Shown piece by piece: positions 5,061 to 53,603 of a stretch of DNA of 64,000 bases. Each line of letters begins with the position of its first letter. Position 1 is the stretch's first letter. A program made the translations under genes and the position numbers. This DNA is from an uncultured Verrucomicrobiae bacterium (GTDB lineage: Bacteria; Chlamydiota; Chlamydiia; Chlamydiales; Rhabdochlamydiaceae), in the NCBI GenBank assembly GCA_963718565.1, contig OY970364.1:160001-224000 (forward strand), read 5' to 3'. Below the pieces are notes generated by a model that worked only from the letters and a program-made list of their open reading frames with translations, ran no database searches and was not told where the DNA came from.

Positions 5061-5105
5061 TGGGCAACCTGGACTTGAACCAGCGACCAGCGGGTTATGA
5101 GTCCG
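5061..5105 (-). repeat. att site: 3' half of a CAT-anticodon tRNA (copy 1)
   Basis: Reverse complement CGGA-CTCATAA-CCCGC-TGGTC-GCTGG-TTCAAGT-CCAGG-TTGCCCA; no D-arm or 5' acceptor strand. Confidence 0.9.
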
Positions 5106-5323
5106 TGCAAACCCCATTAATCACAATCATTAGCAATAGCTAACGGCAACCAGAATAGTGATGTAAGGGATTTTTATCTATGTGAATCATTCGTCATGAC
5201 TTGCCATCTTTTGTGGCCGAATGGTCCAGGTTTGGTCCATTAGCATAATAGCTTTGAAAGTCAAAAAGCTAAATGGTATACAGTTAGTCCAATTGACAAA
5301 GAGAAATGTCTTAAAGTAACTGT

Positions 5324-5803
5324 ATGAAAATTTTTCTTGGTGTATTAGTCTTAAGCAGTCAAATCCTTTTTGCTGAACCTACCGAACAAGATCACATAAG
5401 AGCAACTCACAATCCAGACTACTACAAACACGTAGTACTTAAAGGAATCGTTAAGCAAATGGTTTTTCCTGGTCCTCCTCATTTTCTTAGTGTGGAAAGT
5501 GGGGATTGGGCGGAGCCAAGAACAATCTTAGAAGTGGATGAAGCTTCTTTGTTGCGGCTTGTTGAAGCTCAATCACAAGTAACCACTAGTCATTACTTGG
5601 GTAAATTCATTGATTCGGAATTGAAAGCGGATGAACCCAATGCCAATTGGGTTACTTTGGATTCATCTTTCACAGGAAAATCGAATAATATTGAGTTGTA
5701 TACAAATAAATCAGTGGTGATTGATGCAGTGATCAGCGCACAACCTGCACATTGTCATACTCCATTTGTAGTCGAAATCGCTGAGGTGCTTTTCCATGAA
5801 TAA
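5324..5803 (+). CDS. Exported DUF4431-like protein, putative immunity/lysozyme inhibitor
   Basis: Signal peptide; VLKG...FPGPPHF...GDWAE...HCHTPFVV pattern; overlaps the start of the downstream muramidase-like gene. Confidence 0.55.
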   Translation: MKIFLGVLVLSSQILFAEPTEQDHIRATHNPDYYKHVVLKGIVKQMVFPGPPHFLSVESGDWAEPRTILEVDEASLLRLVEAQSQVTTSHYLGKFIDSELKADEPNANWVTLDSSFTGKSNNIELYTNKSVVIDAVISAQPAHCHTPFVVEIAEVLFHE

Positions 5804-6512
5804 AAAGAAATTTGTGAGAGCTGAGGAAGGGAAACCTCCTGGAATTTCTGTAATTTATTACGATACCGATGGCAACATGACTATTCGTTATCACGATAAG
5901 AATGGGAAGACTGGGTCGATTGCCTGGAGAAACAACAATCCAGGAAATCTAGCTTGGGGCAGTGGTGTGCATGCTAAAAAAACTGGTTGTATAGGAAAAG
6001 CTAGAGGGCGCCCTGTTTTTCCAGATTATGAAACAGGCAAGCAATCTATGCGCCTCCTTCTCAAGGAAGATTTTTATCAGCGATTGACATTGAATCAATT
6101 GCCTAAAAAGTACACTGGGGTTCCGATTGAAGCTCCAGATACCGAAGAAGTAGAGATTTATCGCAGAGCTATTCGTGTTCAAATTAAATTTGATATGGAG
6201 CGCACTGTTAAATCTTTGAACGAAGAAGAGTATGAAAAACTACTTAAAGCTATGGAGACTCATGAGGGCTGGCTAGTAGGACATGAGGAATTTAAAGAGG
6301 TTGAAAAAATTACTGGAATTCATGTGAATAAAAAACGCGTGATCTCAGAATACCTTGTGCAAGGCATGAAAGGCGAACGTTGGCTTTTAAAAGATGCTGC
6401 AATTGCAATGGCTGAAGAAGGGCGCCTACATGCGATTGTTGTCCATGCAAAGAACGGAAATTATTTGCGACCTGAACATGGTTCTAAATCGTTCAGACAG
6501 TTGCTTTGCTAA
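5796..6512 (+). CDS. Lysozyme-like (WRNNNPGNL) protein with C-terminal DUF3892-like domain
   Basis: GSIAWRNNNPGNL...VFPDYETG...HEGW; C-terminal KDAAIAMAEEGRLHAIVVH...YLRP. Confidence 0.6.
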   Translation: MNKKKFVRAEEGKPPGISVIYYDTDGNMTIRYHDKNGKTGSIAWRNNNPGNLAWGSGVHAKKTGCIGKARGRPVFPDYETGKQSMRLLLKEDFYQRLTLNQLPKKYTGVPIEAPDTEEVEIYRRAIRVQIKFDMERTVKSLNEEEYEKLLKAMETHEGWLVGHEEFKEVEKITGIHVNKKRVISEYLVQGMKGERWLLKDAAIAMAEEGRLHAIVVHAKNGNYLRPEHGSKSFRQLLC

Positions 6513-6580
6513 GCATTGTAAACGAAAAAAGATAAGCCCATAACTACGAAACTTTACTCTCTCAAAAATATTGCATGAGT

Positions 6581-8329: not shown

Positions 8330-9460
8330 TTATCCTAAAATCTTTTGAGTCATGGTTGTGACCATCCGTTGTTTATGTTCTTGAGACAAGTGAGCATAGC
8401 GTTTAGTGGACTGCATATCTTTGTGTCCAAGTAAGGTCCCAATATCCAGTAAGCTGTATCCACTCATAGCAAGGTAGGAGGCAACCGTATGCCGCAAATC
8501 ATGGAATCTAAAGTCGACAATATTGGCCAGTTTTACTGCCCTTTCCCAAGCAGAGCGAATGTCGATCGGTTTTTTGGGATCATTTGTAGAAGGGAAAATT
8601 AATGCTTCTTGATTAGGAATGGTGGTCAATCGTTCTTTCATCAAATGAAGGGGAGTGCCAACCAAAGGGACTGAACGGACATCTCCATTTTTGGTTTCTT
8701 TTAAAGTAATGACATTTCGCCCAATATCCACATCTCCTTTCTTCAGCTTCATGATTTCGCTGTAGCGCATCCCTGTGGAAAGGGCTAAAAGAACAGCCAA
8801 ATATAGGACTTTACAGCCACTTTTTTGACAGGCATCAAGTAAACGTACCTTTTCTTCTTCTGAAAGGAAGCGAATTCTGGCATTGGAAAGGGTAGGCTTA
8901 CTGATTTTGCGCACTGGGTTTTCTGTGATCCAACCCCATTCCTTGATCATGATGGTGAAAACATGAGACAGGCTCGAAATATAGCGAATGGCCGTTGTAG
9001 GAGAACGGTTTTTTCCTGCCTTGATTTCTTCTGTCAGAAGCAAATCTTTCTTTTCTGCGATGAGGCTGGGTTTGATGCAGTCAAGACTGTAATCGCCAAG
9101 CTGACGCTTCCACCATAGCAAATGGCGATGAACATTTTTGGCATCTTTTGGTTTGCCTAGCAAAATAGATTTGATATATCTGTCGATTGCTTCGCCCAAG
9201 GTGTGCTTTTGAGCTTCAACTTTATCGAAGTAGCGGCCTTCTTCGATTTCTACTTCGGTGTTTCTTTTCCACTTCTTGGCCAGTGTTAAGGAAGTGAACG
9301 TTTTGGTAACAGGCGGATGTCCTTTGATGCGAACCCTGACCCTATAGCTATCAGTGCCGTCTTTATTTGGTCTTTTATCAATACCATTCATGGCTTTAAC
9401 CCCTTCATCTTGATTGTTAGGGTTAGCCATTGCAGATGATGAATGATTTTTCGTACTCAT
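8330..9460 (-). CDS. Tyrosine integrase of element A
   Basis: TGMRYSE, KNG, FHDLRH, LGH, RYAH catalytic motifs; adjacent to the att at 9583. Confidence 0.95.
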   Translation of the reverse strand: MSTKNHSSSAMANPNNQDEGVKAMNGIDKRPNKDGTDSYRVRVRIKGHPPVTKTFTSLTLAKKWKRNTEVEIEEGRYFDKVEAQKHTLGEAIDRYIKSILLGKPKDAKNVHRHLLWWKRQLGDYSLDCIKPSLIAEKKDLLLTEEIKAGKNRSPTTAIRYISSLSHVFTIMIKEWGWITENPVRKISKPTLSNARIRFLSEEEKVRLLDACQKSGCKVLYLAVLLALSTGMRYSEIMKLKKGDVDIGRNVITLKETKNGDVRSVPLVGTPLHLMKERLTTIPNQEALIFPSTNDPKKPIDIRSAWERAVKLANIVDFRFHDLRHTVASYLAMSGYSLLDIGTLLGHKDMQSTKRYAHLSQEHKQRMVTTMTQKILG

Positions 9461-9582
9461 TTGCTACATTTTGTGGGTGAGTGGTCCAAGAATGGTCCAC
9501 ACTACCCAAAACGGCTTGTTGCTGTCAAGATTGTTTTTATCTGACAGCCTTCAAGCGTATGTATGAGAACGATTTAAGAAAA

Positions 9583-9624
9583 TGGGGCAAGCAGGACTTG
9601 AACCAGGGACCGACGGGTTATGAG
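9583..9624 (-). repeat. att site: 3' half of a CAT-anticodon tRNA (copy 2, chimeric T-stem)
   Basis: Reverse complement CTCATAA-CCCGT-CGGTC-CCTGG-TTCAAGT-CCTGC-TTGCCCCA. Confidence 0.9.
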
Positions 9625-9887
9625 GGAGCGAGAATTCTTTCCTAACCAGCACCATCCAACCTCTATGGACTCCACTATAGGAGATTAGAAAGAATCATGC
9701 CACTGGTTTTTACTCGATAATACCGGTCAAAATCGACGGTCTTTGCACCGCCACTGCACCGGTATCATTGATCAATTTGCCAATGAGAATTTTTAAATTT
9801 GACATTAAGAGTGTGAAGGGGATGCGTGATGCAATTATATATCTTATAATGATATTCTTAAGTTTCAAGCGCTAATCGAGAATTTTA

Positions 9888-10406: not shown

Positions 10407-10410
10407 CACT

Positions 10411-11292: not shown

Positions 11293-11298
11293 TCAATT

Positions 11299-21728: not shown

Positions 21729-22808
21729 TCATTCCTTGTCGCTCTGGGTTTCTAGCCGTTGCTTTGCATGCTCAATTGCTTTGTTCAGTTTCTCTCGGAG
21801 AACTGCTTTGGAAGGTAGGGCAGTCAAATATTCGGCAACGTGGATGCCGGCTCGATCGAGTTCAAGGAGTTCGATCTGCTCACTTTGTTTGCCGGTGCAG
21901 AGAATAAGTCCCAAAGGAGGATGCTCCTCAGGCTGGCGCTCATATCTGTCGAGCCAACGAAGGTATAGTTCCATTTGTCCTTTGTGTTCAGGCTTAAAAT
22001 CTCCGAGCTTTAATTCGATGGCAACCAATCGTTTTAGTTTTCTATGGAAAAAGAGGAGGTCGAGGTGAAAATCTGTGTCATCGATAGTCATCCGTTTTTG
22101 ACGAGCAAGAAAGCAAAAGCCTATTCCTAATTCTAGTAAAAACTGTTCAAGCTCTCGCATGATCGCATCTTCAAGATCCTTCTCAATGTACCGATCATCG
22201 AGTTTCAGAAATTCAAGCACATAGGGATCACGAAAGACGAGGTCAGGTGAAAGTTGGTCTTCTTTGCGGAGGGCATCGATCTCAGCTTGAGCAACCAGTT
22301 CTGGACGTTTTGACAGTGCTGTTCTTTCATAAAGCATCGAGTCGATTTTTTTGCTTAAGGTCCGAACATTCCACCGTTCGATTCGGCACATCTCGGCGTA
22401 AAAATCGCGCTTGATAGCATCCTTGATCGGAATGAGTAACCTGAAATGGGACCAACTTAATTGGTGGGTCAGCGACAAAATGACTTGCTGGTCAGGAAAG
22501 ACTTCAGCGAACTGTATCATCCGATGTAAGTTCTTCTCCAAGAACCCTTTGCCATAATCTGCCGTCAATTGTCGCCACAGTGTGGCGACAATCTTTTTCC
22601 CGTATTCGGCACGTTCATCCTTAGGGATTTCTTTGCTGATGCGAGCTCCTACATGCCAGTACAGTAAGGTTAACCCAGCATTGACCGTGGACGCGATTGA
22701 CTTGCGGGTCTGATCGATCATGTGCCGCAGATCTTCAAGTAAAGCAACTGGGACGGTCGTCACGAGTGCCTGGGGCTGCGGAGGGGTGAGTGATGTTTGA
22801 GGATTCAT
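21729..22808 (-). CDS. DUF1016/YhcG PD-(D/E)XK nuclease family protein
   Basis: Start MNPQ at 22808 overlaps the integrase stop; LYWHVG, LSWSHF, RDPYVLEFL, IELK motifs. Confidence 0.9.
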   Translation of the reverse strand: MNPQTSLTPPQPQALVTTVPVALLEDLRHMIDQTRKSIASTVNAGLTLLYWHVGARISKEIPKDERAEYGKKIVATLWRQLTADYGKGFLEKNLHRMIQFAEVFPDQQVILSLTHQLSWSHFRLLIPIKDAIKRDFYAEMCRIERWNVRTLSKKIDSMLYERTALSKRPELVAQAEIDALRKEDQLSPDLVFRDPYVLEFLKLDDRYIEKDLEDAIMRELEQFLLELGIGFCFLARQKRMTIDDTDFHLDLLFFHRKLKRLVAIELKLGDFKPEHKGQMELYLRWLDRYERQPEEHPPLGLILCTGKQSEQIELLELDRAGIHVAEYLTALPSKAVLREKLNKAIEHAKQRLETQSDKE

Positions 22809-23879
22809 AGAGAGTCTCCTTTGAGGATTTGGTCTGAGATTTGATTGCTGAATTGTTTTGTGACTTGGACATCCATGTGGGTGTAATGGAGCAGCATCGC
22901 TAGGGTGCGATGGCCTGTGGCAGTGGCCAGTTGGAGGTTGGAGGCGCCTTTTGCAGCGGCGTAAGTACAGAACGTATGGCGCATGTCGTGGGCTCGGCAA
23001 TTAGTGATATTGGCTCGTTGGAGGGCTTGCTGCCAAGCTTTCTTGATGTCGATTCGTCCGAATGCTGTTTTGCTGGCAAAGACGAGAGGTTTTTGGGGAT
23101 TTCGTCTCTTTGTAGAGGCATTGGAGTTCTTCGATGACGGGATCGCAGAGGGCGATGCTGCGGGGACGGCCATTTTTGGTTTCTTTGATGTAGGCGAGTT
23201 TGTTGTTGAAGTCGATATGTTTCCATTCGAGATTGAGAATTTCGCCTTGGCGGGCTCCTGTAGTAAGCGAAAGAAGGATGATGCAATAGAGGTAAGGGGA
23301 TTTGCTTCTTCGGGAAGCGGTAAGAAGGCGTGTGATCTCGTCTTCAGAAAGGACGCGGTCTCGGCCGGGGTTTTCTTTGAGTTTCATGAGGCGCAAGCGC
23401 GGGGTTTTCGCTGATCCAGCGGAGCTGGAGGGTGGCATAAGTGAGAAGGGAGGAGAGCGAGGCCATGTAGCGATTGGTAGTGGCAGCAGTTCGTTTAAGA
23501 CTTCTGTTGTGTGGGAGTGTCGGTGAGGAATTGCCGTTCCTTACCTAGCAGTTCGGGGGTGATGTGGACAAGGCCGTAGGAGCCAAGGCGTGATTTCCAA
23601 TAGTTGAGGTGGCGGAGAGTGTCATCGGCAGGAGCGATGATGTTCGAGTGCGCCGTCTTGGATGTAGCGTTCTGTGAGTTCGGCGAAGGTACGGATTTGA
23701 TTGTGTTGGTCAAATTTGAATTGACCGGCTTTGATTTGTCGTTCGACGTTTGAAGCCCAGTCATCGGCTTCTTGCTTGCGTTCGAAGTGATTGCAGACAG
23801 TAGGGTAGCCTTTGATGCGGACGACAGCGCGCCAGACGGTGGTGCCGTTTTCATTTTTGCGTTTGAAAATAGATGCCAT
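22805..23879 (-). pseudogene. Tyrosine integrase of element B, multiply frameshifted
   Basis: Pieces in different frames: MASIFKR... (23879), RHLNYWK, TGARQGE...KNG, AHDMRH...TGH...HYTH. Confidence 0.9.
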
Positions 23880-24047
23880 GATTCCAACCTCATGTTTTGA
23901 GAGATTTAGTTGGTTGGATGGCGCTGCTGGTTAAGATTATTCTTTGTTGCACCGCCATTGCACCGTGCGGCTACAATTTAAACTTGAACTTGATATTCGT
24001 TCAAGTTAATTGTGCGCAAGTGCAATGGAATGTGCTGGTTAAGAATG

Positions 24048-24097
24048 TGGGGCAAGCAGGACTTGAACCTGCGACCAGCGGGTTATGAGTCCGCAGC
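24048..24097 (-). repeat. att site: 3' half of a CAT-anticodon tRNA (copy 3)
   Basis: Reverse complement GCTGCGGA-CTCATAA-CCCGC-TGGTC-GCAGG-TTCAAGT-CCTGC-TTGCCCCA with a perfect T-stem. Confidence 0.92.
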
Positions 24098-24224
24098 ACC
24101 CGCGCCACTTCCCAGCAGCTAACTGCCCAGAATCATAGCGGAAAGCGCTCCTTTCCATCCATCGCGAACTATCGCCACTTATCGCGCTTTTTTGCATGCT
24201 AGTGGTCCACAAATGGTCCACAGA
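24098..24224. repeat. About 125-bp att-arm region, repeated at about 53382-53508
   Basis: CCCGCGCCACTTCCCAGCAGCTAACT...TGGTCCACAAATGGTCCACAGA follows both att copies. Confidence 0.9.
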
Positions 24225-28650: not shown

Positions 28651-28652
28651 GG

Positions 28653-28748
28653 ACAATTGGGTATTACGATTATGTCAATAATGTGCGAGTTATTATTAAT
28701 TCAAATAATGGGAAGGTTATAACAGTTATTCCAGGAGCTCCAAAATGA
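28653..28748 (+). pseudogene. C-terminal remnant of a polymorphic toxin (RNase-like tip)
   Basis: Reads TIGYYDYVNNVRVIINSNNGKVITVIPGAPK*, with an ATGA overlap into the next gene; 5' part lost at the ISAs1 end. Confidence 0.55.
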
Positions 28749-29026
28749 GTAAAAATGTTCGTGCTAAACAATTGCTTATGGAAACAATTCAAAAGATTCT
28801 TTTGAAGGAATGGGATCCGATAGGTATTCAAGATATTCCCGAAGCACAAGATGAGTATGATTCTTACATTTCAGATATTTGTGAATTAATACAGTCTAAA
28901 AAAACTGAAAGTGAGGTGTTTGATTATTTGTGGAGGATTGAAACAGAGCATATGGGTTTGTCTGGGGATAAAAAACATACACAAACCATTGCTCATAAAC
29001 TGTTCAAATTATCCGTTCCCTTATAA
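28745..29026 (+). CDS. DUF1871/YugE-like protein, putative immunity
   Basis: WDPIG...DEYDSY motif; coupled to the toxin remnant. Confidence 0.7.
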   Translation: MSKNVRAKQLLMETIQKILLKEWDPIGIQDIPEAQDEYDSYISDICELIQSKKTESEVFDYLWRIETEHMGLSGDKKHTQTIAHKLFKLSVPL

Positions 29027-29256
29027 AGAAGAACATATGAAAATTGAAAAAGTAGATACTCCTGCTGCGGGAACATGGGCACGGGATTGTGAGCTGTTAT
29101 GCCTATCTGATTGCAAAGGCTTTAAAATAAGGTACCACAGAGACGAAGATGATACTTACTGGAGTCTGCAATGCAAGGGGATTGTAGCATATAAAGTAAT
29201 GGGGGCTTGTAACAGAATCCATTGAACTTATTCAAACCTGATTATATATTATCAGA

Positions 29257-31156: not shown

Positions 31157-32245
31157 GTTCAATTGTTTGGAAATTGTCGTTAATTCGCTTTTTCAGCATG
31201 TCTTTTAAATTAATAACGCCAGTGTTGAAAAAATCTCTAATTTTCTCAGTAAATTCATTGAATTTTGAATACAGTGTATTATAAGTAACACACTCTCTCA
31301 TAACTTTCCATAAACGCTCAATAGCATTCAAATTTGGGGAATACGGAGGTAAGTAGTGTATTTGAATTTTGGTTTGGCTATCCAAATATTTTTGCACTTC
31401 CTTATTCTTGTTTGATCTGCCGTTGTCTAAGATTAAGTGGATTTTTTTTGCATCTGTATTAGCCGCTAACGTTTGGAGAAAATCGACCGCACTTGCAGCA
31501 TCCACAGTGCTATATTCCTTCGTCACGACTTGCATTGCAGTCAATTCAATGGCACCAATAAAATGCAATCGCTCTTGCTTAGCGGTTGTTCCTAATGTCT
31601 TTATTTCGTTTTTTAGGATCCACCCAGCCACAGACTGGCTCTGATACTCAGGGTGTACAGCATCTCCAAAGAAAATTTTCTCGCCTTCTTGGAGACCGGC
31701 TTTCAATTCATTGTATTTTTTAAGGAACGCAGCTTGTTTTTCGGGATCGAGCTTTCCTGGTACTTTGATTGGATGTTTATAAACAAATCCATGCCTCTTC
31801 AACCAATTTGTCATACCAGCCACAGTGTATTTCACTTGATATGCGTCTAGAACGTAGAGACAAATTTTGCTCATTTTGAGATACGTTATTTGACTCAAAT
31901 GTCTCCTCAGCGCATCTTCTTGGTCTAGGGTTAACTTGGAGGCCTTTCCCAAATGTGGATCATTGATAGTTTTTTGCTTGGCATCGTATTCTCTTTGATA
32001 ATCATAAACGGACGACTCGCTAATTCTTAAAATCGCCGCTATTTCCCCTGGACTGTGGCAATCATCCCTACCTAAAATGACGCATACACGGTTCCGTTCG
32101 TTGACATCTCTTGTTTTTTTTACAAGCTGTTCTAAATATAAACGCTGCTCATTGGACAACTTTTGCATAGAAGCATTATCCACTATCGCTGAAATATTTT
32201 TTAGGGAAATTTAAAATTTTACAGAATCCAATCATGAATAGTATA
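31122..32245 (-). mobile_element. IS630-family IS (transposase 31128-32183)
   Basis: FGDAVHP, LILDN, LPPYSPNLNAIERLW; inserted in a TA tract with imperfect IRs beginning TATACT. Confidence 0.92.
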
Positions 32246-32553
32246 TATGATCAGGTTTGATCAAGTTTTGAAGAGCGGAAGAATTTTCAACAACAGGATA
32301 TCTGATTAAGTTGCCTGTGGATGGAGCCTTTTTTGAGATATCAGATTCCCCCTGGATACGTGAATTTGGACAAGAACGATCTAGAATTTTAGATAAGTGC
32401 AAGCATTATGTCCTTCGGTTTTACGATGAAACAATAGAAATTATTGCCCAAGATTTTGTGTTTGAGCAATTGAAAGAAAAGCCGCTAATTAACTGCTAGG
32501 GCATTGAAATTTTCTAGAAAAAAGAGAGGATTCTTTTTAATTAAGGTAAATAA

Positions 32554-32702
32554 ATGAATGCCGATATTTACATCAAAGTGAGATTCAAGACAAGCGAGGA
32601 AGGCGGCCGTAAAACGTCTGTGAAACGCAAAACTCCGCTCGGGCCAGATTTTTATGGCTGTCCATTGATGGTTGATGGCAAAGCATATGACTGTCGCTTA
32701 CT
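32554..32702 (+). pseudogene. Truncated small protein resembling the EF-Tu domain III-like family
   Basis: FKTSEEGGRKT...FYGCPL motif; cut by the IS end at 32703. Confidence 0.45.
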
Positions 32703-32861
32703 AACTCACCTTACGCAAATCGGTAAAAATTTCTTGACAAGGCCTGTCTTTTTTTCGTAGTCTTGTTCAATTTTTTGGAGAAAAAATGAACAGACTACTC
32801 GATATCTATTCGGATTACTTGATTGCTCAGAATCAATATGCAACAGCAGTTGGTCTCTCAG
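32703..32861 (+). mobile_element. Left-end fragment of the IS701-like IS
   Basis: Identical to 38728-38886; truncated by an IS3. Confidence 0.9.
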
Positions 32862-34351
32862 TGCGCTGCCGACAAAAAGTTGGACAGAAAATCGAGGGGA
32901 ATAAGTAACTCTCTGTGTTAAGTCTTTCTCTATAAGCCATTCTGCAGCTCATATTCGCTGCATATTATTCTAAGGTTATATTTCCTACAATCTCTTTTTT
33001 TCTTTTCTTCTTTTTTCTCCAGTGAGAACTTTCCTGTTTTCGGGGGTGCGGGGGCGAAGCCCCGACCCTCCTCTTATTCTGAAAAACAGACCTTATAATG
33101 CCCAAACTGAGGTGGATGGGGTAGGGGCCCCATCCGCCGAAGGCGGGAGCAGGGGGGACGGTAGTCCCCCGACAAGCCTTTCCCAAATAAGCCGGACAGG
33201 CTTCTTGAAAAGCCCTCGGAATGCTTGGCATATACGTACACAAACGTTCTTGGATTTTCAACTTTCATTTTTTTGCTTTTTTGACTTCGAATCCTTTGTA
33301 CTCTCCTTTTGAATATTTGGGTTTGATTCCATGATAAATTTCATTGGGTGTCGCATACAATAAGGCCTGATGCGGTCTACTGCAATTGAAATGCTCGATA
33401 TACTCATCAACCCCAGCACGCAGTGCTCTTACTGTTTCATAACGATGTAAATATATTTTTTCGTATTTCAGAGACCACCAACCTCTCTCTTGATAGACGT
33501 TGTCAATGCACCTGCCCTTGCCGTCCATGCTGATCTTGATACCTCGTTGCCGCAATAATTCTAGAAACGCGGTGCTTGTAAATTGAGACCCTTGATCCGT
33601 GTTAAAATATTCTGGACACGTTTTCTGTAAGGCTATTTCTAGTGCTGCAAGACAAAAATCCACAGTTATAGTGTTCGAGAGCTCCTGAGCAAGCACGTAT
33701 CTGCTAAACCAATCGGTCACTGTAATCAGATAGACAAAACCGTTAGCCAATGGGAGAAATGTTATATCGGCACTGAAAACCTGGTTAGGAGTTCCAATCC
33801 ACAAACCATTTAATAAATAGGGATAGTGCGGGTGTGATGCGGAGGGTTTGCTGAGGTTTTTTCTGGGAAGAACAGATAAAAACCCCATTTTTCTCCATAA
33901 CCTCTCAATCCTTTTTTCATTCACGTTAAATCCCTCACGCCTTAAATCGGCATGTATTTTTCTATAACCATATTCGGGTTGCGCATAATGCAATTCTTCT
34001 ATTTTCTGCATAAGAGCAAGGGTTTCTTCTGACTCTACTATAGGAGCATAGTAATAACTAGATCGAGGGAGGCCCAACGCTTCACATTGAGCCTCGACAG
34101 ACAACATGGGATGTTCAGGTTCAATCAACCTGCGTTTCTCAAGAGTTGTCAACCCCGGTTTTTTTTTTCAAAAATTCGAGCTGAGACTGAAGCCTGCCTA
34201 TTTGGGCATAAAGCGCCTCAATGTCTATATCTGGGGCCGATTTTTTTTTACGCCTATCTTCAAACAGCCGCGAGATGCCTTGAACTGCTTGACTTTTCCA
34301 TTTGGTGATTTGTGCTGGATGTATTTTGAATTGTTGGGCCAAGTCTGATAG
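32862..34351 (-). mobile_element. IS3-family IS, 5'-truncated (orfB 33265-34152, partial orfA)
   Basis: YGYR, ADIT, TDQGSQF, GRCIDN...E motifs; A-run frameshift site at about 34159-34168; orfA cut by the second IS3. Confidence 0.88.
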
Positions 34352-35687
34352 TATAATGGTCCCCAAAATTTAGACCACTGTCTAAGCTAATATCCTCCCA
34401 ATGCGAGGAGGCCAAAATGGCCAAAACAAAAAAACAATATTCACCGGAGTTCAAGCTCAAAGTAGTACTAGAAGTGCTCAAGGGTGAGAAGACAGCAACC
34501 CAACTCGCTGGCGAGTTGGGGGTACATCCCGTAGTTCTGTCGGAATGGAAAAAACAATTTATTGAGGCAGGACCTCAGATTTTTGTAAAGACCAGGAGGT
34601 CTAGGGATACAGCAGAGGGCAAAGAAAAGGCCGAACTGTTCGAACAGATTGGAAGACTCAAGATGGAGAACGAGTGGCTTAAAAAAAAATTGGGGGCTTT
34701 GACCTGAATGAAAAACGGGCACTCATTGAACCTCACGATATCAAATTTTCCCAAAGAGCACAGTGTAAGCTCCTCGGAGTATGTCGATCTGGATTGTACT
34801 ACGAGCCACAGCAGCCTGGTGAAGAAGACTTGCGACTCATGTGCGCAATCGACAAACAGTACCTCGAAACCCCCTATTATGGGAGGCGTCGAATGACAGT
34901 GGCAATGAGAAAACTAGGATTTGTCGTGGGACAGAAAAAAGTGCGAACAGCGATGCAGGTGATGGGGATAGAGGCGATCTATCCAAAGCCGAACCTGAGC
35001 GCTGGGAATAAACAGCATAAAAAGTTCCCGTATTTACTGAGGGGCCTAATTGTTGATCGTTCCGATCAAGCTTGGGCAGCTGACATCACTTACATTCCAT
35101 TAACAAAAGGATTCGGATATCTGTTTGCAATCATAGACTGGTATAGTCGGTACGTGATTGAGTGGGAGCTCTCAAATCTGCTTGATACAGAATTTTGCAT
35201 GGAGGCATTGCAAAGGAGTCTTTGGCAAAAAAGACCTGAGATATTTAATACTGATCAAGGTGTGCAGTTTACGAGTAGTCAATTCACCGGGAAACTTGAA
35301 GAGAATGGGATTAAAATCAGTATGGACGGGAAGGGTCGAGCTCTTGATAACGTGTTTATTGAGAGGCTGTGGAGAAGCGTGAAGTATGAAGAAATTTACC
35401 CGAAAGGATACGAGAGCATGAAAGAGGTTCGATCGGGGCTGAAAAAGTACTTTGAGTTTTACAACAACAAGCGACCCCATCAGGGTCTCGATTATCGAAC
35501 CCCAGCAGAGGTGTATTATGGGACATAAGAAAAAGAAAGGGGCTTTGCCCCTTGAACCCCAGCAAAGGGCTGACTGCCCTTTGCAAACCCGTGGGCTTTT
35601 GTATAGGGCCCTGGGAGTTAGATTAAACAACAGAGGAGATTAGCTTAGATTTCTCGATTTTTGGTCTAGACAAAAGGAACCACTTTA
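34352..35687 (+). mobile_element. IS3-family IS (orfA 34417-34707, orfB to 35528, -1 frameshift at the A9 run)
   Basis: YSPEFKLKVV HTH, DITY, TDQG, DNVFIERLW; imperfect IRs ending TAGACC; no target duplication. Confidence 0.92.
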
Positions 35688-35697
35688 AGGAGGAAGC

Positions 35698-37074
35698 TTG
35701 GCTTGGCGTCTCAATAACCCAGGTCTTTTACGATCCCATGATTCAATAGTTCAAAAAAATACAATCATAGGAACACATTCTCCATATGCAATTTTTCCAA
35801 CATCCGCCTCTGGTATGCAGGCACTACATATCTGGCTAAGGTCAAAATTTTCTGATGGGTTTCTTTTAGCTATTGCCAAGTATTATCATCCCGGCTGTCC
35901 AGAAACATGGCTAAAAAAGCTTTGTCAAATAGCCGACTTAAATTCAGAGTCCAGGTTAAAAGATTTATCAAATGATGCATTTCGTCGCTTAGTAAAAGCC
36001 ATTCACTTGCTCTGCGAATTTTCAGCTTCTTATGAAGGAAAGCTCCAGATTCTTCCTAAAATTTCAGCTAGGTATTATTCACGAGATAGAAAGGTAGAGT
36101 ACTATCTTGCTGGTTTTGAATATCTTTTGACAAAAGCTGACGCTATCTCATGGGTGGAAATGCATCGTTTAGATGCTGTAATTGTCCATAAAAGTAATGG
36201 TGTAGTTTATCTCAGATCACGCCCGGGCCACCACTTAGATCAGATACGATTTTCAGAAGAGGCTTATGGAAAAGAAACTGGATTTAAAGATGCTCTTAGA
36301 GATGTTGGAAAAAAAACAGAGGGACAATGCATTTGGGGGTATATCAATGGAATCTGGAATGATGATGATTATGCTATACAATCGGCTCAAATGATCTCTA
36401 AAATCGCTAAAGACGAACAAGTTTGGTCTTTGGTCAATAATACAAAATCCAAGTTGAAAGATCTAGTGGAGTGTGGTCATCAAAAATTGAGTCTGGATAC
36501 TGATATTGTGAAATTCGCCGCAAAATTTATGCAGCTTCTGCTTCAATTTTCACGCGAATCTTCTCGCAACCCAGATGTTATCGTTTTTGTTCATAGTCAG
36601 GGTGCGATAATTGCAGATCTAGCTCTTGATCTGCTGAGTCAAGAAGAGCGTAAAAAAATACGAATTTTTGCTTTTGGTGGTGGCTCTTTTATTTTTCCTG
36701 GTAAAAGTCATCCTGAATCGCACAATTATATTAGCATCGGAGACCTTGTTTCTCGAATAGGATCTCCCGAGCTTGCTCTATTAGCAATACGACTTCATGA
36801 AGAACAAAAAAAGAACCGTTCTCTCAAACAAGTGATTGATTTATTGGCTGATGAAGATGCAGATTATTATCTCGACACAACGGATCCAAAGATTGTGGAA
36901 ATCTTTCGTGAAAAGCGGAGAGAATTTTACAACGATAAGTTTAAGAAAATTACAAATGTCACGGTCTTAGAACAAAGCGATGACGCATTTTTAGGAACAT
37001 GGGAACATTCATTTCGTGTTCCCTGTTATCAATCTAAAGTAAAAGAAATTATCAATCGATGCCGCAATGATTAG
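35698..37074 (+). CDS. 5'-truncated lysozyme-like + DUF3892-like + DUF687-like alpha/beta hydrolase protein
   Basis: (GGSL)AWRLNNPG, KADAISW...LDAVIVH...YLRSRPG, YINGIWN, HSQG nucleophile motif, GDLV, EHSF. Confidence 0.65.
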   Translation: MAWRLNNPGLLRSHDSIVQKNTIIGTHSPYAIFPTSASGMQALHIWLRSKFSDGFLLAIAKYYHPGCPETWLKKLCQIADLNSESRLKDLSNDAFRRLVKAIHLLCEFSASYEGKLQILPKISARYYSRDRKVEYYLAGFEYLLTKADAISWVEMHRLDAVIVHKSNGVVYLRSRPGHHLDQIRFSEEAYGKETGFKDALRDVGKKTEGQCIWGYINGIWNDDDYAIQSAQMISKIAKDEQVWSLVNNTKSKLKDLVECGHQKLSLDTDIVKFAAKFMQLLLQFSRESSRNPDVIVFVHSQGAIIADLALDLLSQEERKKIRIFAFGGGSFIFPGKSHPESHNYISIGDLVSRIGSPELALLAIRLHEEQKKNRSLKQVIDLLADEDADYYLDTTDPKIVEIFREKRREFYNDKFKKITNVTVLEQSDDAFLGTWEHSFRVPCYQSKVKEIINRCRND

Positions 37075-37591
37075 ACTTCTTAAGTTTTTTCTAAAATCTT
37101 GCATCCTTGCATTTGTTTTTTTTGTTGCGATTGATTATTTTTTTCTGCGCGAAAAGAAAGTCGATTTAAGCGATAAGACAGATTTTAAAAAATTGATAGG
37201 GGCAACATTTGAAATGAAACAAGATACTTTTCTCTATAAGCAATATGAGGATCAAAATTTCCATTTAGGAATTTCTCAAGAAAAAACATGGCTTCCTGAG
37301 AACACGGAAGAGTATCTCAATGATTTGAAAAGAGGGGAATCTACGCCTAACTATGTTTGGCATCAGGAAAGATTTCAAGCTATTCATCTATTACCACCAG
37401 GAACACAATTCAGAATAACTGGAATTTTTCGATTTGAAAAGCCTTTAGTTGGAGATTATTTAGCCATTGAGATAGTAATCCTAAATGGCCCATATGAAGG
37501 TCGTCATGCGCAAGCACAAGGGCTATTTAACTATAATGTAGAGCCTTATGAAGTGATTGGACCTAATGCATCGCTCTATCAGGTGATATGA
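37067..37591 (+). CDS. Membrane-anchored hypothetical protein, putative immunity
   Basis: N-terminal TM segment; overlaps the stop of the upstream effector-like gene. Confidence 0.55.
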   Translation: MIRLLKFFLKSCILAFVFFVAIDYFFLREKKVDLSDKTDFKKLIGATFEMKQDTFLYKQYEDQNFHLGISQEKTWLPENTEEYLNDLKRGESTPNYVWHQERFQAIHLLPPGTQFRITGIFRFEKPLVGDYLAIEIVILNGPYEGRHAQAQGLFNYNVEPYEVIGPNASLYQVI

Positions 37592-37621
37592 AGAGAACTT
37601 TCATGGCTTTGCTTGCCTTAT

Positions 37622-38656
37622 TTATTTTTCTAAATTATTAGTTTTCATTGGGTTTTTTATCAGAGCAGCCTTTTCGAACTCTTTAATTGTCTCAAGGAAA
37701 TGTTGTTCTACCAAAGAAGGGCCATCAAGAACTTGCTGCTGATACTTAGTATATTCAACCCTGGCTTTATCAAGAGCTTCTTCATGACTTATTTTTCCAG
37801 CATGGGAGAGGATATCACGAGAAGCTGTCTTTAAAAAGTCATCAAGTTTGGCAATCCAATCTTTCATGGACATGGGATTGCGACTTAAAGCTTGCAATTC
37901 AGCGAAATCCAAATAGAGAGATACGATTAGGTTGAGAACTTTTAACTCTTCTTCATTGAGGTAGTTTTTTGCAATTTCAGCGTCAGTTTGTCTTGGTTTT
38001 TTCCCTGACCAAGAAGTGAGACCCATGTTTGTTTTCCCAGCATTTGCGCGCGAGTAAATAATTTCTGCGGCTGTATGACCATGAGCTGCCCAGTGCATTT
38101 TGTTTTGAACCACTGCGAAAAACTGCTTTGAGCTTTCTGTTTTTGGGTCGTAATCAATGCTTGTGGCATAGATATCGAGGATCTTGCGCCAGAATACTTT
38201 TTCAGAGGAACGTATGTCTCTGATTCTGGCCAAAAGTTCACTGAAATAGTTTCCGCCTCCGCTTCGCTTAAGTCGTTCGTCATCAAGGGCAAATCCTTTA
38301 ATCAAAAATTCTTTTAATCTATTGGTAGCCCAGATCCGGAACTGAGTACCTCTATGCGAACTGACCCTATATCCCACTGAGATGATCACATCCAAATTGT
38401 AGTGCATCACCTGGTAATTTTTGCCATCTGCGGCAGTATGCCGGAATTTCCGGCATACTGAATTTTCTTCTAACTCTTTTTCTGTAAATATGTTTTGTAT
38501 GTGTTCGGCTACTGTCCTTCGATCTTTATCAAATAATTCACTTAGCTGTGCCTGGTTCAACCAAACGGTTTCATCTTGTAGGCGTACTTCGATTTTGGTT
38601 TGGCCATCCTCTGTCTGATAGAGCAGTAGAGAGCTGTCTGTGGGGATCGTATCCAT
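37622..38656 (-). CDS. rhuM: Virulence RhuM-family DNA-binding protein
   Basis: ETVWLNQAQL, YNLDVIISVGYRV, IRDIRSSEK, HGHTAAE. Confidence 0.92.
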   Translation of the reverse strand: MDTIPTDSSLLLYQTEDGQTKIEVRLQDETVWLNQAQLSELFDKDRRTVAEHIQNIFTEKELEENSVCRKFRHTAADGKNYQVMHYNLDVIISVGYRVSSHRGTQFRIWATNRLKEFLIKGFALDDERLKRSGGGNYFSELLARIRDIRSSEKVFWRKILDIYATSIDYDPKTESSKQFFAVVQNKMHWAAHGHTAAEIIYSRANAGKTNMGLTSWSGKKPRQTDAEIAKNYLNEEELKVLNLIVSLYLDFAELQALSRNPMSMKDWIAKLDDFLKTASRDILSHAGKISHEEALDKARVEYTKYQQQVLDGPSLVEQHFLETIKEFEKAALIKNPMKTNNLEK

Positions 38657-38727
38657 CTTTTCCTTTGAGAAGCTATTTCGGTTAAGCGGTTAGCATAGCT
38701 GTAAGTAGAAAAAATTTCTATCTTTAC

Positions 38728-39910
38728 AACTCACCTTACGCAAATCGGTAAAAATTTCTTGACAAGGCCTGTCTTTTTTTCGTAGTCTTGTTCAATTTTT
38801 TGGAGAAAAAATGAACAGACTACTCGATATCTATTCGGATTACTTGATTGCTCAGAATCAATATGCAACAGCAGTTGGTCTCTCAGATCTCTTAGAAGGC
38901 CGGATTAGTCATGACAAAATTACTAGATTTTTGAACAGCAATGAATTTTCATCCAAAGAGCTATGGGAATACATCAAGCAGGAAATTCGCAAGATTGAAC
39001 AAGATGTAGGAGGAGTGCTTATTTTTGATGACACGATTGAAGAGAAGACCTACACGGACGAAAATGAGATTATTTGTTGGCATTACTCGCATGCCAAGGG
39101 AAGATGTGTGAAGGGGGTCAACCTTTTATCATGTCTTGCTCGCTACGGAGATATTGCCTTACCCATTGCTTATGAGCCTATTTATAAAGACGTGCTTTTT
39201 TGTGATGTCGCCAGCAAAAAAGTAAAAAGACAGTCTTCAGTCAGTAAAAATCAAATGTTTCGATCTATGATTGCCCAAGCTGTAACCAATAAGGTTAAAT
39301 TTGACTATATATTGTCTGATAATTGGTTCGGAGCGAAAAAAAATATGGAGTTTATTCATTATGATATGAAAAAGAAGTTTGTAATTGGGATCAAAGCTAA
39401 TCGATTGGTCGCTCTTTCTGAAGAGGACAGAAAAAATGGTCAGTACCAAAATCTAAATGCATTACCACTCAAGGATGGAGAAAAAAGAATAGTCTGGCTA
39501 AAAGACATGTCTTTTTCTGTAGCACTCATTACAAAGATCTTCAAAAACGAAGACGGCTCTACAGGCACTCTATACCTTGTTACAAATGACTTAGAAAGTA
39601 GTGCTGACCGAATCTACGAAATCTACCAAAAACGGTGGCGCATAGAAGAATATCACAAATCGATCAAGCAGAACGCTAGCCTTGAGAAATCGCCGACTAA
39701 GGTTCTGCGCTCTCAAAAGAACCATATTTTTGCATCAATCATCGCTTATTGCAAGTTGGAATTTCTCCGAACTCAAACTTTTTTGAATCATTTTGCTCTG
39801 AAATATCAATTACTGATGAAGGCAAATCGAATGGCATTTTTAGAACTTGAACGGCTGCGGTTCAGAACTGGTTGCGATATGGTTGGAGCCCATTTTGCGT
39901 AAGGTGAGTT
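38728..39910 (+). mobile_element. IS701/IS4-like IS, intact (transposase 38811-39902)
   Basis: 17-bp IR AACTCACCTTACGCAAA; TAC on both flanks; FDDT, SDNWF, RWRIEEYHK DDE motifs. Confidence 0.92.
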
Positions 39911-50618: not shown

Positions 50619-52061
50619 TTAAGATTTTCGTGGAAGATTAGAGGATTTCTCAACTAGCTGACGCTTGAGTTCTTGAAGTGAGATGGGGTCATGGTAAATT
50701 GGAATAGGATTTTCTCGCTGATCCCGCAGATGTTTTGGAAGCATTCTCAAATTCTTATGAGGGTGCGGGAAAAGAAGGAATGCTTCCGGTAAAGCAGGAG
50801 TATTCCCATGAGGAAGGATTTTTTCAGAGGCTCGTCTGAATCGTTCTGCAAGATTATCCATGGTCAGATTTGGAAACAATTTTTGTGGCCTTTTCAAAGG
50901 TTGATCTCCGATGTATTCCTTCAATAAATCAGCTAGCCCTTCCGAGTGCTCTATTTCTTCGTCATCTATCAGAAGTCCATTTTGAATAACGTCCTCTGTC
51001 GTCACTTCCAAAAGCCGCTTGATGGAATAGGAGCGAGTTCCATTTTGCGAAATGTAGACCATGATCCAAAGCAGCAGAACAATTTCTCCTTCGATATCAT
51101 GGTCTAAGGGATCTGCAATGAATTGATCAGCAAAGTGAAGGATATATTTCCCGAATGTATTTCGGTCAATTGCATAGCCCGATTTCCATCGAGAGGTAGA
51201 GGTAGTTTGTTGTTTAGATTGTTTAATTGAAACGAGCCCTTGCAGAAGGATCTCTTGCTTTTCCACACTCCATGTGACCCCCGAAAAAATCAGCTTACGA
51301 AGTTGGATCTTCCATAGTCTTTGAAAGTCCATGAAATCTCGCCTTTTTCCAGCAGTAATCGAATGAGACACCTGGCGGTAGGCTTCAGCCACGGAGATGC
51401 CTCCTTTGGGAGCAAATCTCTGGTTTTCTAGCGTTCTTCTTCTCACTTTGAGATCTTGCTTGAGATATTCTTTTATTGTTTGTAGATAATGGTAGTGCGC
51501 CCTTTGATGGAGATTCCGCATTACTGGTTCGAGATCTTTAGAATATTCATTAACAGCGCATAATTGATTGATCAGAGTGTGAGCTTTATTTTCTTTTTCG
51601 TACCATTCGATCCATTTGGACATCTCGGCTTTAGAGGCACAGAAGAGGAGCGCCTCTAATTTCTCCTCTTCGAGCTTACGAAGATTCTCCTCGGGGGGGA
51701 CGATTTGAACAGCCCAGGGTATATGCCAAATGACTTTTTTTGCTTCAGAGGGAAAGCAACGAATGCGACATTCCGGATAAAAGCGAGGGGTGAAAACCAT
51801 GCTGATGAGAGGAGCTGATGTGGCGGCCTCTCTTACCTTTTCATTGGGCGAGAATCTCTGTAAAACATATCGGTGGGTCTCCATCATGGTCTTTAATGCT
51901 CTTTCTGACATAAGCGGACGCCCAAGGATCAAATAAATTTCGGAAAAGAAAAAGTAAAGAACATTGGATTTTTCTGCGACCTTGGCATGAAAGTCTTCGA
52001 GATTTTGCAAGAGGGATCTGATCCCTCTCGCTAATTTTTGGTGTTTAGTCAGCGCCATCAT
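50619..52061 (-). CDS. Hypothetical protein; C-terminus resembles a degenerate tyrosine-recombinase domain
   Basis: 480-aa ORF overlapping the integrase stop; same slot as 20687-21727. Confidence 0.6.
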   Translation of the reverse strand: MMALTKHQKLARGIRSLLQNLEDFHAKVAEKSNVLYFFFSEIYLILGRPLMSERALKTMMETHRYVLQRFSPNEKVREAATSAPLISMVFTPRFYPECRIRCFPSEAKKVIWHIPWAVQIVPPEENLRKLEEEKLEALLFCASKAEMSKWIEWYEKENKAHTLINQLCAVNEYSKDLEPVMRNLHQRAHYHYLQTIKEYLKQDLKVRRRTLENQRFAPKGGISVAEAYRQVSHSITAGKRRDFMDFQRLWKIQLRKLIFSGVTWSVEKQEILLQGLVSIKQSKQQTTSTSRWKSGYAIDRNTFGKYILHFADQFIADPLDHDIEGEIVLLLWIMVYISQNGTRSYSIKRLLEVTTEDVIQNGLLIDDEEIEHSEGLADLLKEYIGDQPLKRPQKLFPNLTMDNLAERFRRASEKILPHGNTPALPEAFLLFPHPHKNLRMLPKHLRDQRENPIPIYHDPISLQELKRQLVEKSSNLPRKS

Positions 52062-53166
52062 CTACTCCTGGCGATGGATCTGAGGCGATGATCTCGCTCA
52101 AATTGGTTGTATTGACCAATTTCTCATAAACTTTTGTCGTCAATTGTTGTACGCTGGCTGCATCTGGATGGCAGTAACGAAGCAGTTGAGACAAAGTTCT
52201 GTGGCCTGTGGCGGCGGATAATTGAATATTAGAAGTTCCTGATACAGAAGCTATTGTAGCAAAACAGTGCCTCAAATCATGCACGCGGAAGTCTTCGATC
52301 GTTGCTTCTTTTAAAGCTTTTTCCCAAGGCTTGCGCAAAGTCAACTGACCAAAACGGGTTTTGCTTGCGAAAACCAAGGATTTTTCTGGATGCTTTTTGG
52401 CGAATAGATCCTTAAGCATTTCCAGTACATCACCAACGATGGCCAAGACACGTGGGCGTCCATTTTTTGTGCTTTTCAAATGGATCAAACCATTTTCAAG
52501 ATCCACTGCGTTCCACTGTAGACTCAATAATTCGCCGCTTCTTGCACCGGTTGTGAGAGCCAAAATGACGAATGGGAGAAGCAGCCTGTTGAAACTTTTT
52601 GCACATGCTTTCAGTAGACGCGAGCACTCATCAGGAGAGAGAGTTCGGTTTCTGCCCTCTGCTTCCTTAAGCTTTTTAACGCGGGACATTGGATTTGATG
52701 AAATCCACTCACACTCTTTCACTCCATGGCTTAGGACGGCTGAAAGAGAAGCAAGGTAGCGATTGACGGTAGCCTCAGTGCGCTTCTTTCCTTTTGGAAG
52801 AACTTCATCAAGGAGTTCCCTCCGGTGTCTTGAGATGAGATCTGAAGAAACATGGTTGAGAGTGAATTTCCCCAGTTTCAATTTCCACCAGTTGAGATGG
52901 CGGAGCACATCTTCTGCACTTTTGATGGAGGGAAGAATATCTTGAATGTAGCGGTCGATAAGCTCAGCTAAAGTGTGCTTTTGTCTGCACTTCTCAGGAA
53001 AGTACAGACCTTGTCTTCGCTTTGCCTCTTCCTGAATTGCCCAGTCTTTAGCTTCCTGATGTGTTGGAAAAGTTTTATATTGGATTGGAAGCCCGTCATC
53101 AGGACGGATCATGACGCGGTAGCTGTTAGTACCGTTTTTATTTTTTCTTTTTTGTATTGTTGCCAT
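52045..53166 (-). CDS. Tyrosine integrase
   Basis: TGARSGE, KNG, VHDLRH, TGH, RYCH; adjacent to the att at 53331. Confidence 0.95.
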   Translation of the reverse strand: MATIQKRKNKNGTNSYRVMIRPDDGLPIQYKTFPTHQEAKDWAIQEEAKRRQGLYFPEKCRQKHTLAELIDRYIQDILPSIKSAEDVLRHLNWWKLKLGKFTLNHVSSDLISRHRRELLDEVLPKGKKRTEATVNRYLASLSAVLSHGVKECEWISSNPMSRVKKLKEAEGRNRTLSPDECSRLLKACAKSFNRLLLPFVILALTTGARSGELLSLQWNAVDLENGLIHLKSTKNGRPRVLAIVGDVLEMLKDLFAKKHPEKSLVFASKTRFGQLTLRKPWEKALKEATIEDFRVHDLRHCFATIASVSGTSNIQLSAATGHRTLSQLLRYCHPDAASVQQLTTKVYEKLVNTTNLSEIIASDPSPGVDDGAD

Positions 53167-53330
53167 CTGTTCATCTCCATTTGTGGTTTACGTGAACAGA
53201 CAGTTCTGATGGGATGAGCTGACACGCATAAGATGTCAGCGTGCCGTATAAGTGCCATAAGGTAAAATGTTAAGTGAAAAATTCACATAACTTTCATTCT
53301 AACTTATTGCAGAACAAGCACTTAAAAATG

Positions 53331-53379
53331 TGGGGCAACCTGGACTTGAACCAGGGACCGACGGGTTATGAGTCCGCTG
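53331..53379 (-). repeat. att site: 3' half of a CAT-anticodon tRNA (copy 4)
   Basis: Reverse complement CAGCGGA-CTCATAA-CCCGT-CGGTC-CCTGG-TTCAAGT-CCAGG-TTGCCCCA with a perfect T-stem. Confidence 0.92.
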
Positions 53380-53603
53380 ACGCCCGCGCCACTTCCCAGC
53401 AGCTAACTCCCCGAAATCATAGCGGAAAGCACCCCTTTCCATCCATCGCAAACTATCGCCATTTATCGCCCTTTTTTGTATGCCAGTGGTCCACAAATGG
53501 TCCACAGACAAAAAATTGAATTCTATGAATGGGCTTTCTTGTATATGATGAATACCCTTAACGAGAGCTAAATATTCGAACCGGGAAAACGAGGGACTAG
53601 CGC

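Follow-up and report, generated by a model that had tools for sequence, protein, structure and literature searches.

A tandem array of six tRNA-Met islands in a chlamydia-like bacterium, with putative integrase arm-type sites at the island ends

In P2- and 186-like phages, the N-terminal domain of the integrase recognizes arm sites, and two direct repeats flank the core on each side. Two arm types, that of P2 (tgTGGaCa) and that of 186 (tgccGCCActt), are distinguished by Nilsson et al. (2011, PMC3448106), according to whom positions 16, 19, and 21 of the N-domain may discriminate between them and members of the 186 type target tRNA genes, tRNA-Met included. Related integrases in one array allow single as well as composite excision, as described in a study of the clc-like islands GI1–GI3 of Bordetella petrii (PMC2717098). 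Here, we analyzed a 64,000-nucleotide stretch of DNA (hereafter, the window; contig OY970364.1, genome positions 160001–224000) from an uncultured chlamydia-like bacterium, which contains the outer 3.5 members of a six-island tandem array whose ends carry pairs of short direct repeats. Judged from the sequence, it is very likely that the array arose as one island after another integrated site-specifically into a single tRNA-Met gene of an intracellular bacterium, and that the tandem repeats at the island ends are docking (arm-type) sites of each island's own P2-type integrase.

The source genome is a single contig of 2,284,058 bp (43.6% GC) with 43 tRNA genes and four to five TLC nucleotide transporters. 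Read alongside the taxa named for the best integrase matches (below), these features would suggest an environmental chlamydia as host. Chlam_OMP6 gave no hit, and the control for that marker registered in none of the genomes either. Using BLAST, we found the 3' half of tRNA-Met (CAT) in seven genomic copies: four in the window, two beyond it (genome 230595 and 245091), and the intact 75-nt gene at genome 271579–271653 (window-equivalent 111,579, or 47.6 kb past the window end), next to which the chromosomal genes guaA and guaB follow. These seven attachment site (att) copies bound six stacked islands with anchor-to-anchor sizes of 4523, 14465, 29283, 17269, 14496, and 26484 bp (islands 1–6), in total 106.5 kb or 4.7% of the genome; island 4 crosses the window end and reaches genome 230611. 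Six integrase genes adjoin the att copies, all on the tRNA strand, as in the Islander definition of a tandem array. A previous sequence-only reading of the window had claimed four tRNA 3'-half copies and two elements of about 4.5 kb (A) and 14.5 kb (B), and had proposed looking for the intact tRNA beyond 64 kb. All four copies were located on the minus strand (table 1), elements A and B correspond to islands 1 and 2 with the sizes given above, and the intact gene was found. ARAGORN predicted tRNA-Met genes at att3 and att4, which we read as pseudo-tRNAs because island DNA, also present at other island ends, makes up their 5' parts.

The T-stem has two compensatory variants among the att copies (cct..agg and gca..tgc). 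In att3–att7 both strands of the stem are always of one type, indicating that the whole T arm travels with one island and that exchange occurs on its anticodon side. The most likely place for the crossover is therefore the invariant CGGGTTATGAG block on the anticodon side, a position that would correspond to the anticodon-centred Islander class. A crossover in the T loop (GGACTTGAACC) was rejected for most islands on the same grounds. The two remaining copies, att1 and att2, reciprocally combine the T-stem variants (cct..agc and gca..agg), which suggests that an exchange or subsequent conversion occurred inside the T arm, for island 1 only.

Tandem pairs of three 7-mers, TGGTCCA, TGCACCG, and GTGCCGT/GTGCCAT (GTGCCRT), flank the att copies of the window, exactly at the coordinates reported earlier (table 1); a solo TGGTCCA is also present at 14658. 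Single 7-mers are not more frequent in the window than in shuffled sequences (9 vs. 6.4 for TGGTCCA, 7 vs. 3.8 for TGCACCG, and 11 vs. 8.5 for GTGCCRT), and the signal therefore lies in their pairing and position. Exact 7-mers repeated at an offset of 11 bp occur 175 times in the 2.284-Mb genome (0.077 per kb), and 10 of the 175 are found within 200 bp of the seven att anchors, where 0.2 would be expected. Furthermore, all 12 flank positions at which a pair is expected carry a 6–9-mer tandem with an exact 11-bp period and the same strand orientation, at about −100/−112 and +144/+151 from the core. Internal att copies have a pair on both sides and the outer copies have one, on the inner side. 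Between copies of the same motif the 7-mers are exact, whereas the 4-bp spacers and the flanks vary. The same motif is present at both ends of islands 1, 2, 4, 5, and 6.

A PF00589-domain gene on the tRNA strand begins 22–90 bp left of every proximal pair. Five of the array integrases are intact (355–376 amino acids) and that of island 2 is broken by frameshifts. R232, K257, H320, R323, H346, and Y355 (island 1 numbering), which we take to be the tyrosine-recombinase catalytic set, are invariant across the five intact proteins. In a phmmer search against PDB sequences, 5c6k, titled bacteriophage P2 integrase catalytic domain, ranked first (E 5e-14), followed by the archaeal XerC-like 4a8e and HP1 integrase 1aih (2e-11). 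The AlphaFold2 model of the island 6 integrase, based on 45 aligned sequences, had a predicted local distance difference test score of 92 overall and 84–94 in the N-terminal part, where the modelled unit is beta-beta-beta-helix (strands 4–8, 14–20, and 28–32; helix 35–50). The arm-binding fold is described in PMC8138268 as three beta-strands plus one helix, and the predicted N-domain of the island 6 protein matches it. In addition, Foldseek aligned the model over its full length to lambda Int 1z1b (E 1.6e-11, 351 columns). The array integrases appear to be heterobivalent tyrosine recombinases of the P2/HP1/lambda type.

The arm motif varies together with the integrase N-domain in this genome. 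Read on the integrase strand, the arms of islands 1, 4, and 6 are TGGACCA, and their three integrases, with overall identities of 55–80%, have a common N-domain signature, GIDKR..K.GT.SYR(A/V)RVRIKG. The other three motifs pair with different N-domains: TGACCA with GIDRLPLEDGTYRYRVRIRIKG in island 5, CGGTGCA with NGTTVWRAVVRIKG in island 2, and (T/C)GGCAC with NGTNSYRVMIRPDDG in island 3. The CGGTGCA pair also occurs, again at −112, with an intact integrase (genome 692.5–693.5 kb; N-domain WRAVVR) next to another tRNA-Met gene (693.7 kb). Further members of the family have 11-bp tandems of TGCGTAA (819 and 959 kb), TGCTGCA (1059 kb), and TCCGGA (2117 kb, beside tRNA-Phe).

Related loci in other genomes were taken from the best 80 of about 600 hits per collection. 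Within these, the nearest are metagenome-assembled genomes labelled Chlamydiales, Parachlamydiales, or Verrucomicrobia, and then Alpha-, Gamma-, and Deltaproteobacteria. An exact 6-mer tandem of period 11 was detected in the 400 bp upstream of int in 87 of 104 external loci that had sufficient flanking sequence, and a 7-mer tandem in 72; other periods from 7 to 15 reached at most 28 and 8 loci, respectively, and the inside of the gene 12 and 5. We then turned to the 128 loci that had an N-domain anchor and no less than 150 bp upstream; an 11-bp tandem is present in 108 of them, and 85 fit the form xGGNNCA. Many proteobacterial members have a second, inverted pair.

For the covariation analysis, four loci with conflicting motifs were removed and the 81 left were grouped at 75% N-domain identity, which gave 59 clusters. 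Among 54 N-domain columns, the one that says most about the central dinucleotide (NN) is a residue, hereafter X, that is the fourth of Y-R-v-X-v-R in strand beta-2 (R19 in the island 6 model). It carries 1.53 bits, a value that none of 1000 shuffles reached (null 0.64, z 11.1); next comes a position in beta-1 (z 5.1). The dinucleotides found were GA 26, GG 4, and other 3 with K; CA 8 and TG 6 with Q; CG 3 and GG 1 with D; TA 3 and TG 1 with L; CA 2 with M; TG 2 with V; and AC 12, TC 4, GA 4, GG 2, and other 3 with R. In six loci X is Glu and the site is TTACGCA/TTCCGCA. Near-identical or closely related N-domains that differ at X also differ in motif, as in L032 and L185 (D, CG) vs. L186 (K, GA) and in L019 (Q, CA) vs. 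L024 (K, GA). On a tree built from the core-binding and catalytic domains, with the N-domain left out, 27 sister pairs were compared: X and NN are both the same in 13 and both different in 10, X is the same and NN different in three, and X is different and NN the same in one (Fisher p 3.4e-4). A tentative hypothesis, somewhat short of an even chance and drawn from these alignments, is that the beta-2 residue is the main determinant of the central bases of the arm site xGGNNCA, a compact and mostly readable protein–DNA code that would operate in this integrase family from Chlamydiae to Alpha-, Gamma-, and Deltaproteobacteria and would let islands share a core. In the pairings observed, K occurs with GA or GG, Q with TG or CA, D with CG, L with TA, and M with CA, while E is found with a site of the CGCA type; the beta-1 residue adds a weaker signal.

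Matched ends were also observed elsewhere. Downstream sequence was available for 49 external loci, and in five of them the tandem is repeated in the same orientation 4.9–10.7 kb beyond int and is followed 124–144 bp later by a 19–52-bp exact copy of the 3' part of a tRNA; these five loci are complete small islands at several different tRNAs. In at least eight external loci a second, different tandem lies just past the tRNA fragment, and belongs to a neighboring island of another arm type. Among relatives of the window's genome, 11 regions had at least two att hits on one contig and nine of them held two-anchor islands. Clean matched arms are present in five of the nine, TGCG(G/T)AA in G001, G003, G009, and G014 and TGCACCA in G038, and two more are loose matches (GTGCC at both ends of G006, as in island 3, and TGGTCC in G040).

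Since P2-like phages have two direct repeats on each side of the core, the repeats described here would be arm-type sites in an already known architecture. The catalytic and core-binding domains of each integrase would act on a common core, the tRNA 3' half, and the N-terminal three-stranded beta-sheet domain would bind the tandem 7-mers. An excised attP would then have two 7-mers on each side of the core, 11 bp (one helical turn) apart and in one orientation, so that each of the four protomers of an integrase tetramer would have an arm site. Islands would match at both ends because one pair stays at each end after integration. If excision needs arms for the same N-domain at both junctions, as the assembly of heterobivalent integrases implies, the arm motif would decide the partners in a one-core stack. 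The anatomy with its statistics, the protein family and fold, and the covariation are what the analysis shows; physical binding, the four-site stoichiometry, and this partner-choice (insulation) function are what we infer from the arrangement.

All five internal junctions juxtapose unlike motifs, as do only 36 of the 720 possible island orders. On the other hand, TGGACCA arms occupy seven of 12 positions, namely the two ends each of islands 1, 4, and 6 plus the distal end of island 3, which would permit composite units (for example, 3+4, 4–6, or 1–4). The claim of the sequence-only reading that arm motifs insulate the elements from each other is accordingly plausible as far as the junctions go, and incomplete in that one motif is common to several islands. 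Its proposal that the 7-mers behave as integrase arm sites agrees with the 12 occupied positions, the matched ends, and the covariation; that the motif tracks the integrase N-domain was borne out in this genome and about 130 related loci, including the covariation it had suggested looking for in related genomes; and elements A and B are indeed delimited by matched pairs at both ends, with the qualification that the integrase of B is a frameshifted pseudogene.

Several observations weigh against the arm-site interpretation or against the code. The ends of island 3 differ, (T/C)GGCAC being proximal and TGGACCA distal. Twenty of the 128 loci have no exact 6-mer tandem at 11 bp and 43 misfit xGGNNCA. 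Two of the nine islands in relatives (G013 and G034) have no matched arms at the expected positions, and four of the five clean cases (G001, G003, G009, and G014) are not independent because they represent one homologous island type. No att-to-att joints or circle junctions were found in the short contigs of four public runs over window 4800–24700; these runs hold at most 24% of the sampled words of island 1, and the excision data decide neither way. Loose contig ends at 24044 match the genome's own att6 flank. The relation of residue to base is not one-to-one: R occurs with AC, TC, GA, and GG, and K, mostly with GA, is also found with GG, AA, CG, and TA. Directional independent-pair tests on supported branches, with 2–6 pairs each, were not significant at p 0.05 (the median p was 0.125 for both K and Q), with all informative pairs in the expected direction. 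Moreover, the sister-pair pattern would be the same if whole N-domains were swapped, and X could then tag the domain without itself being the contact.

Such degeneracy, together with the non-significant directional tests, would suit arm sites that lack specificity, the ends matching by way of a common attP, the variants being drift, and any integrase using any arm. TGGTCCA is also common to integrases that are only 55–58% identical (island 1 vs. islands 4 and 6). We consider this explanation unlikely, given that the 7-mers are exact within a pair and between arms while spacers and flanks differ, that the close N-domains differing at X have different motifs, and that the sister-pair association is significant. 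On our reading, the pairings are also chemically sensible, Asp/Glu occurring with C-rich centers, Lys with G, and Leu with T.

The repeats might instead be sites of a recombination directionality factor (RDF; Xis/Cox/Apl) or of another accessory or regulatory protein. RDF sites such as those of Apl and Cox are typically direct repeats one helix turn apart, as stated in PMC7498355, which is a further point against arm sites, and the proximal pairs lie 22–90 bp upstream of the int start codon, where a regulator could act. However, the pairs are present on both arms of every island, whereas RDF sites are usually on one; the motif covaries with the integrase N-domain; and it resembles the P2 Int arm consensus. 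Island 1 (4.5 kb) has five open reading frames (ORFs) of at least 90 amino acids, none with a DNA-binding Pfam match. Two RDF families were searched: Phage_AlpA had no match in the genome, and the HTH_17 hits in the array were a copy belonging to an IS607-like unit and one sub-threshold hit in island 3, leaving five of the six islands without an HTH_17/AlpA gene. Scans around the proximal arms found no sigma-70-like promoter and therefore gave no support for arms doubling as int operators. Taken together, an RDF or regulatory role is very unlikely. Replication-origin iterons or a partition site near the island ends, which might be suspected because islands 2, 3, and 5 encode primase/replicase-like proteins, have next to no chance of being correct, as the spacing from the tRNA core is constant at either end of all islands, even island 1 with no replication gene, each site has only two copies, and the same architecture lies upstream of integrases across many phyla.

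Table 1. Attachment sites, arm sites, integrase genes, and the insertion sequence zone of the array (window coordinates; flank distances are relative to the core).
Feature	Coordinates	Strand	Description
att1	5062..5105	-	Displaced tRNA-Met 3'-half copy, left (outer) array end; left flank none expected, right +151 TGGTCCA
Island 1 distal (P') arm	5222..5239	-	TGGTCCA-N4-TGGTCCA (5222/5233); TGGACCA on integrase strand
Island 1 integrase	8330..9460	-	376 amino acids; N-domain ...GIDKR..KDGT.SYRVRVRIKG; PF00589 E 2e-35
Island 1 proximal (P) arm	9482..9499	-	TGGTCCA x2 (9482/9493); -112 from core anchor, 22-39 bp upstream of int start
att2	9583..9624	-	tRNA 3'-half copy between islands 1 and 2, hybrid T-stem; left -112 TGGTCCA, right +150 TGCACCG
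Island 2 distal arm	9744..9761	-	TGCACCG x2 (9744/9755); CGGTGCA on integrase strand
Island 2 integrase pseudogene	22805..23893	-	At least 3 frames; N-domain ...NGTTVWRAVVRIKG
Island 2 proximal arm	23948..23965	-	TGCACCG x2 (23948/23959); -112 from anchor
att3	24044..24094	-	tRNA 3'-half copy; ARAGORN: 24047-24114, 68-nt tRNA-Met; left -112 TGCACCG, right +144 TGGTCCA
Island 3 distal arm	24203..24220	-	TGGTCCA x2 (24203/24214), unlike arm of island 3's own integrase
Insertion sequence-rich zone in island 3	27373..39902		IS4/IS5-, IS607-, IS630-, and IS3-type transposases; candidate fusion scar
Island 3 integrase	52045..53166	-	373 amino acids; N-domain ...NGTNSYRVMIRPDDG; PF00589 E 7e-26
Island 3 proximal arm	53241..53258	-	GTGCCGT-N4-GTGCCAT (53241/53252); (T/C)GGCAC on integrase strand; -101 from anchor
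att4	53325..53380	-	tRNA 3'-half copy; ARAGORN: 53330-53398, 69-nt tRNA-Met; left -101 GTGCCRT, right +145 TGGTCCA
Island 4 distal arm	53487..53504	-	TGGTCCA x2 (53487/53498)
att5			Left -112 TGGTCCA, right +149 (AG)TGGTCAT
att6			Left -100 TGGTCA, right +144 TGGTCCA
att7			Left -112 TGGTCCA, right none expected

Island 3, the only member with mismatched ends, is probably the product of a deletion mediated by insertion sequences (ISs) that joined two islands, one of TGGACCA type retained at its far end and one of GGCAC type at its integrase end, with loss of the intervening att. About 130 bp of its distal flank are common to islands 4 and 6. A distal GTGCC pair was looked for inside island 3, and only single GTGCCRT copies (31549 and 41341) were found.

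Other repeats and remnants were noticed near the island ends. A TATCGC(C) tandem of period 10 is located about 110 bp right of the core at window 24170–24186 and 53454–53470, where islands 3 and 4 have the same distal flank; the core is on one side of it and the TGGTCCA pair on the other, and an accessory protein may bind it. Island 2 has an inverted repeat (AACTTGAAC...GTTCAAGTT; window 23978–24008) in the interval from its proximal arm to the core, and a near copy of this repeat is present at genome 1647549–1647594 with a tRNA 3'-half remnant and without an arm pair. A solo remnant of a TGGTCCA-type distal end (TAGTCCA/TGGTCCA) was found at genome 860164–860330.

A second integrase of the same family (378 amino acids), followed by ORFs of 240 and about 350 amino acids, is present at window 60638–63932 and genome 262068–265365. 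Islands 4 and 6 each have one copy of this module, which is oriented against the array, and the two integrases are 95% identical. No 11-bp tandem was detected in the 600 bp upstream of the module, and the copies share only about 130 bp there.

With regard to cargo, island 3 contains a complete-looking thiamine biosynthesis cluster (window 40286–47107) that encodes NMT1/THI5-like, ThiD kinase, ThiO-like oxidase, ThiG, two thiamine monophosphate synthase, ThiF-rhodanese, and ThiL-like proteins. Given this location within a mobile island and the small, intracellular-type genome, the cluster is apparently metabolic cargo. Much of the cargo of the islands resembles conflict-type and defence-associated families, including an AAA_21 ATPase in island 3. 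Island 2 has matches of this kind within window 9888–20337, namely type I restriction-modification (HsdR/S/M), an adjoining weak KwaB-like match, and a T5orf172 protein. A 1832-amino acid Rhs-repeat protein is encoded in island 4 (window 53604–59102), a Schlafen/AlbA_2 protein in island 5, and SMODS plus patatin (CBASS-like) and AbiEi proteins in island 6. The primase/replicase-like proteins of islands 2, 3, and 5 are AAA_25 with a zinc ribbon, DUF3987 with RepB_primase, and DUF927. In island 3, a 78-amino acid frame (window 50279–50368, minus strand) flanked by the DUF3987 primase gene and the integrase-proximal ORF has the sub-threshold HTH_17 match (E 0.007) and is the sole candidate excisionase seen in the array. 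The IS607-like unit, a MerR-type helix-turn-helix/serine-recombinase ORF followed by a TnpB/Cas12f-like ORF (window 29257–31156), is near-identical at at least 10 other genome sites, and HTH_17 hits with identical scores occur at genome 189, 679, 1360, 1713, and 1967 kb, among others.

If the repeats are arm sites, they add to the core repeat a further marker by which tandem island arrays can be resolved; in this array they would delimit five islands and flag island 3 as a fusion product. Island 2, whose integrase is dead, keeps a complete attachment site, on which a matching integrase encoded elsewhere in the genome might in principle act. The link between the beta-strand residue and the arm center is a testable hypothesis for P2-type arm specificity and would extend the two types of 2011 to about ten. 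A diversified arm code, if real, would let related islands share one tRNA core while retaining separate identities, which would explain heterotypic stacks. Integrase–att partners and island boundaries might then be predicted from sequence, and orthogonal integrase/att sets could be designed.

In comparison with known systems, tandem tRNA-targeted islands are also found in Islander tandems, in accretion of integrative and conjugative elements with cis-mobilizable elements, and in B. petrii. An array of six members is unusual: the Islander 2015 report lists four arrays of at least three among 3919 islands. In the sections of the island-array papers that treat delimitation, islands are bounded by core repeats and not by arm motifs. 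Our literature search, which covered little of the subscription-journal work on P2, 186, and HP1, found no paper on an xGGNNCA arm code or on arm-based partner choice in tandem arrays.

Lambda Int resembles the array integrases in its three domains and N-terminal beta-sheet, with full-length fold matches to 1z1b, 1z1g, and 5j0n, and in lambda attP arm sites likewise flank the core. Adjacent P' arm sites of lambda are about one helical turn apart. Unlike the 2+2 sites at fixed distances described here, lambda has five arm sites in an asymmetric arrangement and no tRNA target; no integration host factor or Xis sites were identified in the islands. The closest likeness is to P2/186 attP, which shares the heterobivalent integrase, the direct repeats on both sides of the core, and tRNA targets including tRNA-Met. 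The commonest arm motif here reads TGTGGACCA on the integrase strand, against the P2 consensus tgTGGaCa. This likeness is one of published consensus and of sequence/structure matches. In contrast to P2-like phages, the elements here are small cargo/defence islands (4.5–29 kb), and instead of two arm types there are at least four at one tRNA and about 10 central-base variants family-wide. The array is thus a real and clean example of a known design, the principle of which is not new, and the part worth following is the family-wide covariation between arm motif and integrase N-domain.

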